Shown piece by piece: positions 15,047 to 56,110 of a stretch of DNA of 64,000 nt; positions within the stretch are counted from its first letter, which is position 1; each line of letters starts with the position of its first letter. The notes under the pieces were generated by a model that had not been told where the DNA came from, made no database searches, and saw only the letters and a program-made list of their open reading frames with translations. Both the position numbers and the translations under genes were made by a program. Origin of the DNA: Escherichia phage ECO71P1. The stretch lies in the sequence record OP172789; one strand, 5' to 3'.

Positions 15047-15262
15047 ATGAACAAAGCCTGGGTAGCGGTAATCGGTTTAGTGCTTCTTGTTGTATTAGGA
15101 TACACAATCAAATTTGAAGTTCCAAATCCTGTTGAGCCTGACAAAAAGATTGTCGTTGAAGTCCCAGGCGCTAAAGGTGAATTACCAAAACCTAAATTTG
15201 AAGTTGTCACACCCGCTCCTGAAAAGCAACAGGACGAAGACAACACAGTAATTAATCAATAA
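15047..15262 (+). CDS. small membrane-anchored protein
   Basis: N-terminal VAVIGLVLLVVLGY hydrophobic segment; 71 aa. Confidence 0.4.
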   Translation: MNKAWVAVIGLVLLVVLGYTIKFEVPNPVEPDKKIVVEVPGAKGELPKPKFEVVTPAPEKQQDEDNTVINQ

Positions 15263-23069: not shown

Positions 23070-23087
23070 TCGACAATCAAATCAACA

Positions 23088-23112
23088 AGGCTGCCGATTG
23101 GCGGCCTTTTAT
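23088..23112 (+). terminator. putative terminator
   Basis: AAGGCTGCC-loop-GGCGGCCTT imperfect hairpin followed by TTTATTT. Confidence 0.4.
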
Positions 23113-23126
23113 TTATCTGGTGCATC

Positions 23127-23645
23127 ATGATAGAAAGAATTGTACCGTTACTGAAGATTCTTGCCCTTGTTGGCGCGTTCGCCGCTGGGTCATACGTTGA
23201 AGACCTTAAGCAAACCAACGCATCACTGGCCAAGGATAATCAATATCTTACATCGCTTAATGAGCGTAAGGACAAGATAAATGTACTCGAAGAGCAAATT
23301 GCATCTTTACAGGTTGAATCGGCATCGGCATATGAGAAGGGTCGCCAGGAAGCGCAACTGGTTGCTGATGACACTATTGCTCGTTACAAGTCTGGGAATA
23401 TCAAGCTGCGCGAGCAACTCAGCTGCTCCCGTGAATTACTCAGGAGTGTGCCCGACTCTGCGACCACTGGACGCCTCTCTATCCCAGAAGGAAACTGTGG
23501 ACTATCAGAAGAGGATGTCAGATTTCTTGTTCAGTTCGCCGCAGAAACAAACCGATTAAAAGAGAAGGTTAATAGCTTGATTGATACTTATAATCAGGCT
23601 AAAATTAAAATCGACCAATTCAACGCATCAAAGGAAAATAAATGA
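23127..23645 (+). CDS. putative i-spanin (Rz-like): N-terminal TM anchor plus coiled coil
   Basis: IVPLLKILALVGAFAAGSYV TM then heptad-like region; contains an embedded +1 frame lipoprotein ORF. Confidence 0.4.
   Translation: MIERIVPLLKILALVGAFAAGSYVEDLKQTNASLAKDNQYLTSLNERKDKINVLEEQIASLQVESASAYEKGRQEAQLVADDTIARYKSGNIKLREQLSCSRELLRSVPDSATTGRLSIPEGNCGLSEEDVRFLVQFAAETNRLKEKVNSLIDTYNQAKIKIDQFNASKENK
23332..23559 (+). CDS. putative o-spanin (Rz1-like) lipoprotein embedded in the i-spanin gene
   Basis: Embedded ORF with LLLVTSLGISSC lipobox-like signal; start codon uncertain. Confidence 0.35.
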   Translation: MRRVARKRNWLLMTLLLVTSLGISSCASNSAAPVNYSGVCPTLRPLDASLSQKETVDYQKRMSDFLFSSPQKQTD

Positions 23646-24235
23646 ACCAGATTTATGCAAACATTCGCCAGTGGGCTTCTGACCGTAACATCATCAAAGG
23701 TTGCGACCTTAAGGACCAATACCCGAAGCTTATTAGCGAGTTTGGGGAGTTGACCGACCACGTGGATCAACTCCATGACCTTGTGTTCTTTGACCCTGAA
23801 ATCGGATATACAGAGCAGGCCATCTGTGATTTACAAGCCGCAATCAAGGACGACATCGGCGATTGCCTTGTTGTGTTAACTATCCTTGCCGCGCAAAATG
23901 GTGCAAAAATCGAAGACATCAACGGCGGCGGTTGCGCCGACAAAGGTGCCCACCCTCACTCGTTTATCCTTCGCTTGGCAAAGACTCTCGGACGGCTTGG
24001 TGATGCCATTGCTAAAAATCAGAGTATGGATATTGATGTCACCATCATGGCCGCAGTCGATTACCTTTCCGGCGTAGCACATGATTATGGACTTCGACTG
24101 TCTGATTGCGCTCAGGCCGCCTATGAAGACATCAAGGACCGTAAAGGCGTGATGTACAACGGAACGTTCATCAAATCGACTGATCAGGCTTACGCCTATG
24201 CGCTGGAACAAGTGATGAATAAGGAGTTTGAGTGA
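23642..24235 (+). CDS. MazG-like nucleoside triphosphate pyrophosphohydrolase (all-alpha NTP-PPase)
   Basis: ISEFGELTDHV and DDIGDCLVVLTILA resemble MazG EExGEL / DxL motifs. Confidence 0.45.
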   Translation: MNQIYANIRQWASDRNIIKGCDLKDQYPKLISEFGELTDHVDQLHDLVFFDPEIGYTEQAICDLQAAIKDDIGDCLVVLTILAAQNGAKIEDINGGGCADKGAHPHSFILRLAKTLGRLGDAIAKNQSMDIDVTIMAAVDYLSGVAHDYGLRLSDCAQAAYEDIKDRKGVMYNGTFIKSTDQAYAYALEQVMNKEFE

Positions 24236-25209
24236 TGGCAGGAGAAATCAAAGCACTAAAACCGATGAAAGGTTGCCAGCGTAAACAAATCATTGAGCGC
24301 GGCGAAGACGTGCCGCTGCCTTGCGGGTTGTCATTCAAGGTCGATGGCATACGCGCGATGGCGTATGACAACTTGCCAATGGGTACGTCCGGCATGGCGT
24401 TGCGAAACGTTCAGATTAAAAAAGAGTTCCTCTTTTTGGGTGAATTGATTCACGGCCTTGATGGAGAGCTTATTGACGGCAATCCGAATGATAAGAACGT
24501 CATGCAGCAAGCCTATACCGCATGCATGAATACCGATGCTATAACAAACTTCACATGGTGGGTGTTTGATGACTTTAGCGACCCTGATTTGCCTTTCTCG
24601 GCACGTTATGAGCAATACAATCGACGCGTTGCTGAGGTCAATCAATACCTCATTGACCATGGCCGACGTCCATTCCTTCGCGCTCTCGAATATCGCAACA
24701 TCGAAAATATGGAACAGTACGCGGCAATGCAAATCGAAGCAGACCAGCTTGGCTATGAAGGCTTGTATGGCAAGTCTTGGACGGGCAAATACAAGCATGG
24801 CCGCGCGACGCCAAAGTCACGTGATGTGTGGAAGGACAAGCCGTGGACCGATGAAGAAGGACTGATCATAGACTTCGTTGAGATGATGGAGAACAACAAC
24901 GAAGCGTTCATTGATGAGTTGGGTCGCACTAAGCGTTCAAAAGAGGCTGAAGGCTTAGTCGCAAAAGGATACCTTGGCTCATTCGTAGTTGTCAATCCAA
25001 AGTATGTGGATGAGAAAGGTGAAATGATTCCTTTCCGCGTCTCCGCTGGTTCAATGCCTATGGCAGAGAGAAAAATGCTTTGGGAGAATCGCGAGAATTA
25101 TCGCAACAAATATCTGACATATAAATTCTTTAACTTTGGCATCGTTGACGTGCCGCGCTCTGCCTTGTATAAGTGCTTCCGTGATATTACCGATATGGAG
25201 TATTTTTAA
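24235..25209 (+). CDS. ATP-dependent DNA ligase
   Basis: Adenylation motif I FKVDGIRA (KxDGxR); size similar to small phage ligases. Confidence 0.6.
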   Translation: MAGEIKALKPMKGCQRKQIIERGEDVPLPCGLSFKVDGIRAMAYDNLPMGTSGMALRNVQIKKEFLFLGELIHGLDGELIDGNPNDKNVMQQAYTACMNTDAITNFTWWVFDDFSDPDLPFSARYEQYNRRVAEVNQYLIDHGRRPFLRALEYRNIENMEQYAAMQIEADQLGYEGLYGKSWTGKYKHGRATPKSRDVWKDKPWTDEEGLIIDFVEMMENNNEAFIDELGRTKRSKEAEGLVAKGYLGSFVVVNPKYVDEKGEMIPFRVSAGSMPMAERKMLWENRENYRNKYLTYKFFNFGIVDVPRSALYKCFRDITDMEYF

Positions 25210-25282
25210 CACACTGGATAAATAATTGGTGCGTATAATCTATCGCGCCGTTTTCTAGAATTTAATATACAGTGTATACATA

Positions 25283-25305
25283 AAGCCGGAAATTTCCGGC
25301 TTTTC
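25283..25305 (+). terminator. rho-independent terminator
   Basis: AGCCGGAAATTTCCGGCT hairpin followed by TTTTCTTTT. Confidence 0.65.
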
Positions 25306-25384: not shown

Positions 25385-25927
25385 ATGAAAGCGAACAAAT
25401 TAAAGATTGTTTTGATCATCATCATGGCTATGCTGACAGTTATATTCTTCACCAAGACTGCATCGGCTGAAAATATGTTTGCGCCGCCGAATGGAAGTGC
25501 AAAAGTTTTGACAAGATATTTCAACAATGGGCAATCCTTTGAGTTCTGCTGGAGCAAATACGACGTAATAAAAGAAAGATTTGACAAAGAAAAGATGTGC
25601 GTAATGAATGATCGCGGTCGACAAGTCGTGTCGTTTGTGTTCGGAATGTCAATGGCAAAAGTTGATGCCCCTGAAATCGTTGTCAGGTATAATACATTGG
25701 ACAGCGGCCTTGTCGACAAGACATACCCTGTTGCAGTAGACAGCAGGACAGGCGGCGCACTAATACTCACTCCAGAAGATAAATCAGATGTCGTTAACAT
25801 GCTCATCAACAGCAAAGACGTAATCGTGTTTTATCACATTGAAGGCGTATCAGACTACCAAATGGCCTACTATCCACTGCCCTTGAGAGATGCTTCAGGT
25901 AATGTTAAGACACAGGAAGTGCGTTGA
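25385..25927 (+). CDS. secreted or periplasmic protein (signal peptide)
   Basis: KIVLIIIMAMLTVIFFTKTASA leader; 180 aa. Confidence 0.5.
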   Translation: MKANKLKIVLIIIMAMLTVIFFTKTASAENMFAPPNGSAKVLTRYFNNGQSFEFCWSKYDVIKERFDKEKMCVMNDRGRQVVSFVFGMSMAKVDAPEIVVRYNTLDSGLVDKTYPVAVDSRTGGALILTPEDKSDVVNMLINSKDVIVFYHIEGVSDYQMAYYPLPLRDASGNVKTQEVR

Positions 25928-25941
25928 CATGGGTGGTAGTT

Positions 25942-26154
25942 ATGCAGAAAGATTTGGAAGAAAACAAAAGGCTGAAAAAGGCTTTGACGTCTCAAATCTT
26001 ATCCCTGTTGGTAAAGCTTATTGGGGAGTCAATTAGCAGCAAGGTGGCACGGGCCGCGATTGTAGGCGTGATTGGCATGGCGGGGTATTACTTCGACTTG
26101 CCAGACATTGATACAAGTTCCGCTCCGCCCGTCCAAGTTGAAGCCGTAAAATAA
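25942..26154 (+). CDS. small single-TM membrane protein, holin candidate
   Basis: AAIVGVIGMAGYYF TM; start moved to ATG after GGGTGG (track used TTG at 25924). Confidence 0.3.
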   Translation: MQKDLEENKRLKKALTSQILSLLVKLIGESISSKVARAAIVGVIGMAGYYFDLPDIDTSSAPPVQVEAVK

Positions 26155-26157
26155 ACA

Positions 26158-26179
26158 AAGGCCCATATGGGCCTTTTTC
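26158..26179. terminator. bidirectional terminator between converging units
   Basis: AAAGGCCCATATGGGCCTTTTT perfect palindromic hairpin flanked by A and T runs. Confidence 0.7.
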
Positions 26180-44542: not shown

Positions 44543-45682
44543 TTAGATACCAGTCATACGGACGACTGCGAAAGGACGCTTAAGCAGAACGCCTGCTGTT
44601 GCGTTTGCGTAGTCTTCAACGTAGCTCTTAGCACGTTTCTCAACGCCCAGAGTCATGAACTTAGTCTGAACCAGCTGGCTGAATACGGAACCATCATCGC
44701 TTGAGCCATCAATTGAGGAATCGATGTGATCAGCGTACAGATATGCCACGTTCAGGAAAGTCGGGTCACTGCCAAGTGCGCCGTTGAGTTCCGGTGCAGA
44801 TTTGATCTTCATCTTCGGATAAGTCTGGGTGATCCAGTCACGTACAGAAATACCGAAGTCGGTGGTGTTTGACAGCCAATCAATAGAGTTGGTCGGCAGC
44901 GCCAGAGTCATATCAACCTTCTCTGGATCAATCTGGTCCTGAGAGTTGACACGGATTTGACGAACCATCAAACGGATGTCTGCAGTCACCTGTTGGAAGG
45001 TCGCAGTAGCCCAGCCGGAAGTGGTGTTTGAAGTCATTGCCGCTGGCAGGTTTGGATCATTCAGGAAGCCGAACGTGCGGTTGTTCCCGTTATACCAACC
45101 ATAGAAGCCGATTGCGTTACGCATGATTTCCAGAGATACAGCAGCCTGCTGGCGCTTGGTCTCTGCAGAGTTCAGACGCATCGCAGACGCGCGGCCTTCT
45201 TCCAGCATGCCGACTGCCATGCCCATTTCACCGCGAACGATGGAACGGCGTTCAAAGTTCACGTTCCAGCTTGCCAGAGGAATAGAGGTGAAATCACCAT
45301 ATTCAACTGCGGTGCCAGCTGGTTCAACGATGCCCTGAACGATTTCTGCATCTTCCCACTGACCAACGGTGTCAATACCAACCAGCTCGTCAATTTTACG
45401 GGCAGCGGTCATGATTTTGACGAAGCCAGGCAGCCACTGTTGCAGGAACTGCAGCGGGGTCGGGATTGATGGCGTGGTCTGCGGCGCAGTAAATGCGGCG
45501 TCACCTACGCGGAAAGCGCCTGCACGGTTTAAGTGCTCAATCTGATCACGCACAATCGCGGAATCAAACACAATACCGATACGCGCAAGCTGGGAAACAG
45601 CCGCGTCGGTCACGGATTGCATATCAAAAGGGCGCACCTTGCTCGCTGGGAGGCGAGAGTGTGTTTGGCTAATGCGAGTCAT
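44543..45682 (-). CDS. putative major capsid protein
   Basis: 379 aa; position after scaffold gene; downstream hairpin. Confidence 0.45.
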
Positions 45683-45696
45683 TATTCACCTGCCTA

Positions 45697-46314
45697 TTAA
45701 CGAGTCAATTGTACAATGGTATAAGTGGAAGACTGGACGCTTGGGCCGGAAAGGGCAATAGTCGTCGGGTCAATCACAATACCGCCTGGGATGGCAACCA
45801 TGCCAGTTGGCAATGAGCCAGTATAGGCGATAATTGCACCAATAGGCAAGTTGTTCGGGTTGTTACCGCTGGAAATGCCTTTAGGTACATAAGCAAGCAG
45901 GTCGCCATAGTTAAGCGTCTGCGGACTGGTGCTTGGGTTGAATACTTCAACTACGAGGCCCGTGCACATATCATAGAACTCGCCTTCGCTATATTGAGGC
46001 AGAACCATGCTGGCACCCAAAGGACCAGTAGAGTTGCCATACAGCGCGTAACGCTTGCTATTGCCGAGGATGCCGTAGTAGTTAGTGCCGCCCAGCTCAA
46101 CTTCAAAGTCCTGCGCGCCCAAAGTTTTGGTTTGACCAGTACCCATTAAGGATACGTCAGTCTTAAAACCGAACACACGGCTGATGGCGTTTACGTTTGC
46201 GCCTTCGTTAGCGTTGGCAATTCGGCCTGGCTTCCCACGCTGTGGGCCGTCGCGAACGATGTCGCCAGGAAAGCCAGTTGTATATTGACGGCCTACACTA
46301 GTTTGGAAAGTCAT
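45697..46314 (-). CDS. hypothetical head protein (decoration or accessory)
   Basis: Start trimmed to MTFQTSVG to abut scaffold gene. Confidence 0.35.
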   Translation of the reverse strand: MTFQTSVGRQYTTGFPGDIVRDGPQRGKPGRIANANEGANVNAISRVFGFKTDVSLMGTGQTKTLGAQDFEVELGGTNYYGILGNSKRYALYGNSTGPLGASMVLPQYSEGEFYDMCTGLVVEVFNPSTSPQTLNYGDLLAYVPKGISSGNNPNNLPIGAIIAYTGSLPTGMVAIPGGIVIDPTTIALSGPSVQSSTYTIVQLTR

Positions 46315-54913: not shown

Positions 54914-55129
54914 ATGAAACTCATCGACCGTGCCATCAAAGCCATTGATAACCACTCCACCGCGCTTGCTTTCGTGATGGGATTTTGTTTTACTGCTGCG
55001 TTTGGCGACGTTCACACATTCAAGTCTGTCATCTTGTGCTGGTCCATTTGGTCACTTATTTCTCTGGTTTTGATTCTTCCGATGACGTGGCTTGTTCTTA
55101 CTTGTCTGGAATCTCAAGGTGAAGACTGA
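54914..55129 (+). CDS. small membrane protein (two hydrophobic segments)
   Basis: 71 aa; GGAGG RBS. Confidence 0.4.
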   Translation: MKLIDRAIKAIDNHSTALAFVMGFCFTAAFGDVHTFKSVILCWSIWSLISLVLILPMTWLVLTCLESQGED

Positions 55130-55768: not shown

Positions 55769-56110
55769 ATGAACAACACTTTATCACAACTGCTAATCTG
55801 GACAATCGCTGCTATCATTGGCACCGTTATTATGATGTCAAGCGCAAAGGCTGAAACGGATATTTGCGGCAGGCTTATTTCTGAGAATGGCGAGATTTAT
55901 TATGGCAACTCAAAAGGCGATTATATATCACCTGAAGTCTGCGCTCAGAAGAAAGCAGAAATGCAAAAGCAGTATCATGAAGATCAATCCATATCTCAAG
56001 CCGCGCTGATTGAATTAAGTATATCAGCCATCATCTTTCTAATCGTTTTTATGCTCATTATTAAACCAAATAATGACAGCAACCGTCATATTCCTCTCAA
56101 AAGAAATTAA
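55769..56110 (+). CDS. membrane protein (N-terminal signal/anchor and C-terminal TM)
   Basis: 113 aa; preceded by hairpin 55732-55752. Confidence 0.45.
   Translation: MNNTLSQLLIWTIAAIIGTVIMMSSAKAETDICGRLISENGEIYYGNSKGDYISPEVCAQKKAEMQKQYHEDQSISQAALIELSISAIIFLIVFMLIIKPNNDSNRHIPLKRN

Follow-up and report, generated by a model that had tools for sequence, protein, structure and literature searches.

A predicted two-component spanin of the embedded Rz/Rz1 type among the replication genes of a Wifcevirus-type Escherichia coli phage

Of the systems described so far, the closest to the one analysed here is that of phage ECML-117. Kongari et al. (2018, PMC6139136) catalogued it as a two-component spanin of the embedded kind, placed it among the i-spanin and o-spanin singletons, and give coordinates 45375-45894 for the i-spanin and 45461-45689 for the o-spanin in the supplement. 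The same survey lists Yersinia phage PY54 among the embedded spanins, reports that cysteines for intermolecular disulfides are near-universal in spanins, places the T4 spanin genes PseT.3/PseT.2 at a distance from those for the holin (t) and the endolysin (e) (legend of its Fig. 8), and attributes to the PB1-like phages a spanin that is unimolecular and has an AWAC lipobox. Wifcevirus, the genus to which ECML-117 belongs, is considered a distant relative of Pbunavirus (BASEL preprint). In GenBank, an i-spanin and an o-spanin are already annotated at the equivalent locus of Mansfield (CPT_Mansfield_057/058) and of the BASEL phages Bas98-101, and several related records carry the label 'i-spanin / o-spanin' or 'Rz-like spanin'; the genome announcement of Mansfield contains no discussion of lysis genes.

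Here we analysed a stretch of 64,000 nucleotides from Escherichia phage ECO71P1 (OP172789), hereafter called the window, which belongs to a Wifcevirus-type E. coli myophage whose DNA is 95-98% identical to that of ECML-117, Mansfield and WFH. A 1-kb stretch around the spanin locus is matched over its full length, at 95-98% identity, by 28 phage records, all of them Wifcevirus myophages of E. coli or Shigella and among them ECML-117, Mansfield, WFH, WFC, FEC19, vB_Eco4M-7 and Bas98-101. ECML-117, Mansfield and Bas98-101 have the same genes as the window, with i-spanins 96-99% identical; embedded architecture, neighbouring genes and the terminator upstream also agree, and these phages differ from it by a few substitutions only, for example Q28/A53 in their i-spanins where the window has K28/V53, and MHSK at the N-terminus of the o-spanin where the window has MYSK. 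The i-spanin sequence of ECML-117 in the supplement of Kongari et al. (2018) is exactly that of Mansfield and differs from that of the window in 2 residues. The embedded spanin pair of the window is hence an ordinary one that is already known, being annotated and catalogued in close relatives. We consider it very probable that the 172-aa protein and the frame embedded in its gene (Table 1) constitute a two-component spanin of the lambda Rz/Rz1 type, its function being predicted. The initial annotation had reached the same reading, and it is supported by our analysis in that every sequence-level feature of such a pair is present and is conserved in relatives.

Table 1. Features of the spanin locus, of its surroundings and of the equivalent slot in two other phages (positions refer to the window unless a contig is named)
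Feature	Position	Strand	Evidence or description
Terminator-like GC-rich hairpin, 9 bp stem, 4-nt loop, then T-run	23087..23108	+	Terminator scan
i-spanin (Rz-like), 172 aa	23127..23645	+	PHROG 1327 'Rz-like spanin', E=8.2e-27
Candidate Shine-Dalgarno (AAGGA) for the o-spanin, inside i-spanin codons K48-D49	23268..23272	+	Kept in five divergent lineages
o-spanin (Rz1-like) ORF, 92 aa, fully embedded, +1 frame	23281..23559	+	ORF list, PS51257 match
Predicted mature o-spanin, Cys43 to Asp92, 50 aa	23407..23556	+	Lipobox, conserved motifs
MazG-like pyrophosphatase	23642..24235	+	PHROG 1992, 2e-63
ATP-dependent DNA ligase, last gene of the spanin-MazG-ligase group	24232..25209	+	PHROG 114, 2.4e-41
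GH19 endolysin, 214 aa	26180..26824	-	Pfam PF00182, 32.6 bits (cut-off 25.5); PHROG 181, 8e-70
PHROG 1544 slot protein, ~201 aa	L014 6789-7394 (goonie); L015 6940-7545 (Hera)		Gly-rich N-terminus, two hydrophobic segments

In the case of the i-spanin, the hydropathy scan gave its highest 17-residue window at residues 5-21 (IVPLLKILALVGAFAAG, KD 2.14) and no second hydrophobic segment in the protein, pointing to a single N-terminal transmembrane domain at about residues 5-23. The AlphaFold2 model of this protein, which was built on six sequences and has a mean pLDDT of 80, comprises a helix at residues 5-106, a 21-residue linker at 107-127 and a second helix at 128-171, with pLDDT values of 83-93 over residue blocks 31-100 of the first helix; the GenBank note on gp69 of vB_Eco4M-7 reads 'coiled-coil domain found'. 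The periplasmic domain is thus predicted by the model to be mostly helical, with two segments joined by a linker, as in known spanins, and a transmembrane domain followed by a modelled helix-linker-helix is the layout expected of an i-spanin. The PHROG 1327 match, the hydropathy profile and the modelled helix starting at residue 5 agree in upholding the Rz-like protein with an N-terminal membrane segment that the initial annotation had described. Cys100 and Cys124 of the i-spanin occupy invariant columns across the aligned relatives, as does Cys57 of the o-spanin, and periplasmic cysteines able to form the disulfides usual in spanins are therefore predicted in both subunits.

Scanning both proteins against the Rz/Rz1 models yielded no Pfam match at E<=1 and no NCBIfam match, so that by sequence the i-spanin falls outside PF03245, the Pfam family of lambda Rz, and its assignment to the spanins at this level rests on the PHROGs and on tblastn. 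Two distant i-spanin homologues came from the latter search, one in PY54, a phage of Yersinia (E=5e-13), and the other in the Burkholderia phage Mica (E=4e-6), with 29-31% identity over ~150 aa.

The spanin pair opens a spanin-MazG-ligase group that belongs to the rightward replication block, and lies, in agreement with the location first proposed for it, between the PolIII/helicase/Pam3_Gp34 genes on one side and those for MazG and DNA ligase on the other. The upstream hairpin, which closes the unit of the Pam3_Gp34-like gene, leaves 18 nt to the ATG of the i-spanin; it folds as RNA into a centroid hairpin (MFE -16.3 kcal/mol, z=-1.8), is given as a terminator in the records of Mansfield and WFC, and shows one loop substitution only in close relatives. 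The i-spanin stop and the MazG start overlap in an ATGA at 23642-23645, with the same 4-nt overlap in the four divergent relatives (contigs L003-L006, see below), which suggests translational coupling, and MazG in turn abuts the ligase gene, after which the terminator scan located a second terminator-like hairpin (25282-25303). Because the pair lies behind a terminator-like hairpin and is coupled to MazG and ligase, it is most likely transcribed with the replication genes and not with the endolysin, the timing of spanin expression being deduced here from gene layout. No sigma-70-like promoter was detected in the 18-nt gap between the hairpin and the i-spanin start, the nearest matches on the plus strand lying far upstream or inside genes, and transcription of the group is hence presumed to depend on read-through of the hairpin or on an unrecognised (phage) promoter. 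Spanin complexes are inert until the peptidoglycan is degraded and early expression is compatible with this property; transcription together with replication genes could be tolerated, since spanins do no harm as long as the wall is there.

The endolysin is devoid of an N-terminal hydrophobic (SAR) segment and is encoded ~2.5 kb beyond the spanin stop on the opposite strand, where it follows the tail fibre gene as the last gene of a leftward minus-strand tail-fibre operon that ends at a terminator-like hairpin (26157-26176). The separation of the pair from the GH19 endolysin, previously proposed from the sequence, is thus borne out. The classical cassette, in which the spanin genes adjoin those of holin and endolysin in the same orientation, was not found at this locus, and the dispersed layout is conserved in relatives. 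The annotation of Bas100, the single Wifcevirus record that we listed feature by feature, names neither a holin nor any spanin other than this pair, and the hydropathy scan of the window for a holin returned several small membrane ORFs that have no family assignment. Two proteins encoded on the plus strand between the ligase and the convergent endolysin could represent a holin or a lysis regulator: one of 76 aa (25924-26154; PHROG 5165) with weakly hydrophobic segments, whose homologues adjoin the endolysin at the same place in Pbunavirus and Myosmarvirus, and one of 180 aa (25385-25927) with an N-terminal signal-like segment (…TKTASA followed by EN). Three small ORFs elsewhere on the plus strand (54914-55129, 55769-56110 and 15047-15262), with at least one strongly hydrophobic segment and no PHROG match, are possible holin candidates. 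In two of the divergent Logan contigs (L003 9065-9520 and L004 9078-9530) the endolysin position is occupied by a 150-151-aa protein, with no Pfam match recorded, and not by the 214-aa GH19 protein, which suggests that the endolysin was swapped in these phages while the spanin locus stayed.

With neither a holin nor an endolysin as neighbour, the pair draws no support for the spanin reading from genetic linkage, and this circumstance, together with the lack of Pfam and NCBIfam Rz matches, is what could be expected if the pair had an envelope role unrelated to lysis, for example in superinfection exclusion or in the membrane anchoring of replication; such a role would also explain the position among replication genes and the translational coupling with MazG and ligase. 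We regard it as very unlikely, given that PHROG 1327 is a spanin family, that the homologues in PY54 and Mica fill the spanin position of canonical lysis cassettes, that all the architectural hallmarks of two-component spanins are found in the pair, that the fully listed record of Bas100 contains no other annotated spanin, and that T4 offers a known case of dispersed spanin genes (Kongari et al. 2018, PMC6139136).

The second component of the predicted spanin is encoded by an ORF that starts 154 nt after the i-spanin start (1 mod 3), which places it in the +1 frame. Its product begins with a basic n-region and a hydrophobic core, and the segment LLVTSLGISSC fits the PROSITE lipobox pattern PS51257 with the cysteine as residue 43 (nt 23407-23409), the strict lipobox being ISSC and the residue at +2 being Ala. 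In view of the established Lol-avoidance rule, the absence of Asp at +2 would direct the lipoprotein to the outer membrane. The predicted mature protein contains 4 Pro in its 50 residues, a second cysteine (Cys57) within GVCPTL, and a conserved C-terminal motif, ETVDYQ..MS.FLF; matches of the ORF to two spanin PHROGs are weak (0.003-0.008). The lipoprotein-like frame with LGISSC, wholly inside the i-spanin gene, is therefore as the initial annotation had reported it, and its coordinates and description of the spanin genes proved accurate when ORFs, hydropathy and lipobox were checked.

The sources disagree on where the o-spanin starts. Kongari et al. (2018, PMC6139136) give a 75-aa form that begins at the equivalent of 23332, and the GenBank records give a 92-aa protein that begins at the equivalent of 23281. 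The ATG at 23281 stands 8 nt behind the AAGGA, and the whole arrangement of AAGGA, spacer and ATG is kept across the five divergent lineages, where the Arg codon next to AAGGA varies (CGT, CGA or AGA) and the frame-0 residue over the ATG is N, Y, H or D, always in the form xAT-G. Conservation of the ATG at 23332 is uninformative, since this codon overlaps AYE, an invariant stretch of the i-spanin, and lacks a Shine-Dalgarno sequence. Conservation of AAGGA and ATG over varying frame-0 residues thus favours, at the sequence level, the start at 23281 and the 92-aa form over the 75-aa form, which falls short of proof; this start would give the o-spanin an unusually long signal peptide of 42 residues.

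The protein search identified one near-identical cluster and four divergent i-spanin homologues with 53-65% identity (L003-L006). In these divergent contigs the gene order is PolIII alpha, helicases, DUF7307, Pam3_Gp34, i-spanin, MazG-like and ligase, followed by two small genes and then by the reverse-strand endolysin, the tail fibre and the wedge gene. The corresponding interval of the +1 frame is open in 4/4 of them, with a lipobox reading LAISGC, LAISSC or LATSSC, with the second cysteine inside an invariant GVCPTL, and with the C-terminal motif ET(V/A)DYQ..MS.(F/I)LF. The ORF is intact in six close relatives too, and Pantoea phage Nafs113 also keeps it together with the lipobox Cys, the second Cys and the C-terminal motif. 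Loss of the lipobox cysteine in relatives had been named beforehand as the observation that would speak against an embedded o-spanin, and this cysteine is conserved in all relatives. In comparisons of i-spanin codons that specify the same residue, the two codons were identical in 71% of the pairs inside the overlap vs 47% outside (Fisher p=3e-15, the pairs not being phylogenetically independent), and this reduction of synonymous change is the signature that a second coding frame leaves in aligned sequences. Both frames are thus under selection in the relatives. Of 20,000 synonymous permutations of the codons of the i-spanin gene, 5.8% produced an ORF of 92 aa or more in an alternative frame and 1.2% an alternative-frame ORF with a lipobox; the test is only moderately discriminating because the protein sequence fixes most bases, and we take it as suggestive but weak, the decisive support for the second frame in these sequences coming from conservation in relatives.

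That only the 172-aa protein is real, the +1 ORF being an untranslated by-product of codon choice and the outer membrane being disrupted by the product of some other gene, is hardly credible, for in spite of the permutations that still yield such ORFs and of the weak PHROG matches of the embedded frame, not one of the 11 relatives examined has this frame interrupted, even where i-spanin identity falls to 53%, and it is open in the Pantoea phage as well; neither its two cysteines (that of the lipobox and the second one) nor its C-terminal motif varies, the suppression of synonymous variation is peculiar to the overlap, and the Shine-Dalgarno sequence and ATG are conserved over varying frame-0 residues.

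The embedded +1 ORF of Nafs113 (OK570186), which lies in the i-spanin homologue at L007 5734-6234 and reads MKKPWLIIALVISGCANNSPVIGTCPKMPP...ADYQTLMSNFLF, is homologous to the o-spanin of the window. The record of that phage assigns the name 'putative o-spanin' to a separate upstream lipoprotein, ORF67 (L007 5467-5733), which is probably a mis-assignment.

Taking the embedded spanin as the best explanation for the locus, its action can be envisaged as follows. The i-spanin would be anchored in the inner membrane by its N-terminal transmembrane domain and would extend its mostly helical, two-segment domain into the periplasm, as hydropathy and the structural model suggest. The motifs in the +1 frame indicate that the o-spanin would be made from this frame, probably from the ATG at 23281 behind the conserved AAGGA, that signal peptidase II would cut it between LGISS and C with lipidation of Cys43, and that, its residue +2 being Ala, it would be carried to the outer membrane by the Lol system. 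On the model of lambda and T4, the two proteins would bind each other through their C-termini to give a periplasm-spanning complex, which disulfides through C100/C124 of the i-spanin and C57 of the o-spanin would probably stabilise. The complex would remain inactive as long as the peptidoglycan is intact; after release of the GH19 endolysin by the holin and degradation of the wall, the complexes would fuse the inner and outer membranes and complete lysis. Experimental data bearing on this come from gp69 of vB_Eco4M-7, annotated as 'Lysis system i-spanin' and 97.6% identical to the i-spanin of the window, a HiBiT-tagged version of which gave 0 plaques vs 332 for the untagged control (PMC11074155). 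This result is consistent with an essential gene and is confounded in that a C-terminal tag would also disturb the overlapping MazG start.

The spanin pair completes the lysis gene set of a phage from the genus Wifcevirus, a group used against E. coli O157, and the gene layout confirms that the lysis genes of these phages are dispersed and not gathered in a cassette. The pair has little importance beyond correct annotation. What our analysis adds is the evidence on the o-spanin start, the divergent members, including that of Pantoea phage Nafs113, that the ECML-117 'singleton' spanin family has now acquired, and the presence of a different membrane protein in the equivalent slot of Pbunavirus and Myosmarvirus, a difference which is to be taken as a lead and not as a finding.

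This slot lies between Pam3_Gp34 and MazG. In Pbunavirus goonie and Myosmarvirus Hera the synteny is kept, but the slot holds an unrelated membrane protein of ~201 aa belonging to PHROG 1544 (Table 1), a family named holin in 1/367 matching records and hypothetical in almost all; no homologue of this protein was found in the window. The Pbunavirus unimolecular spanin would have the same presumed job as the pair of the window, disruption of the outer membrane, and occurs in a sister group with a syntenic replication/endolysin region; an AWAC-type unimolecular spanin is absent from the syntenic 12.7-kb Pbunavirus region. The genome announcement of Myosmarvirus phage MTx reports that no spanin or holin was found. 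A doubtful but conceivable interpretation is that the PB1-like supergroup has, between Pam3_Gp34 and MazG, a conserved slot for envelope or lysis genes whose contents can be exchanged, and that co-expression and translational coupling with replication genes would pre-load the lysis machinery early. If so, such early pre-loading of the envelope could contribute to a short latent period, and a very short one has been reported for these phages, whose development is complete in about 10 min.

Among the more distant systems, PY54 and Mica, whose genomes are temperate or those of siphophages, have the i-spanin homologue directly after holin and endolysin in canonical cassettes, whereas the pair of the window lies among replication genes. 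The Mica record annotates an o-spanin embedded in the i-spanin and cites PF03245, whereas that of PY54 annotates only the Rz-like gene. T4 provides a precedent for dispersed lysis genes such as those of the window, but its spanin has the 'separated' architecture, with two non-overlapping genes, while that of the window is embedded. The lambda Rz/Rz1 pair resembles the one in the window in having an i-spanin of similar size with an N-terminal transmembrane domain and two helical periplasmic segments joined by a linker, an o-spanin lipoprotein wholly embedded in the +1 frame, and periplasmic cysteines in both subunits. It differs in that no Pfam-level similarity was detected between lambda Rz and the i-spanin of the window, in that lambda Rz1 is more proline-rich than the o-spanin of the window, whose signal n-region is longer and more basic, and in that the lambda pair forms the end of the S-R-Rz/Rz1 late lysis cassette, whereas the pair of the window has its place among the genes of replication.
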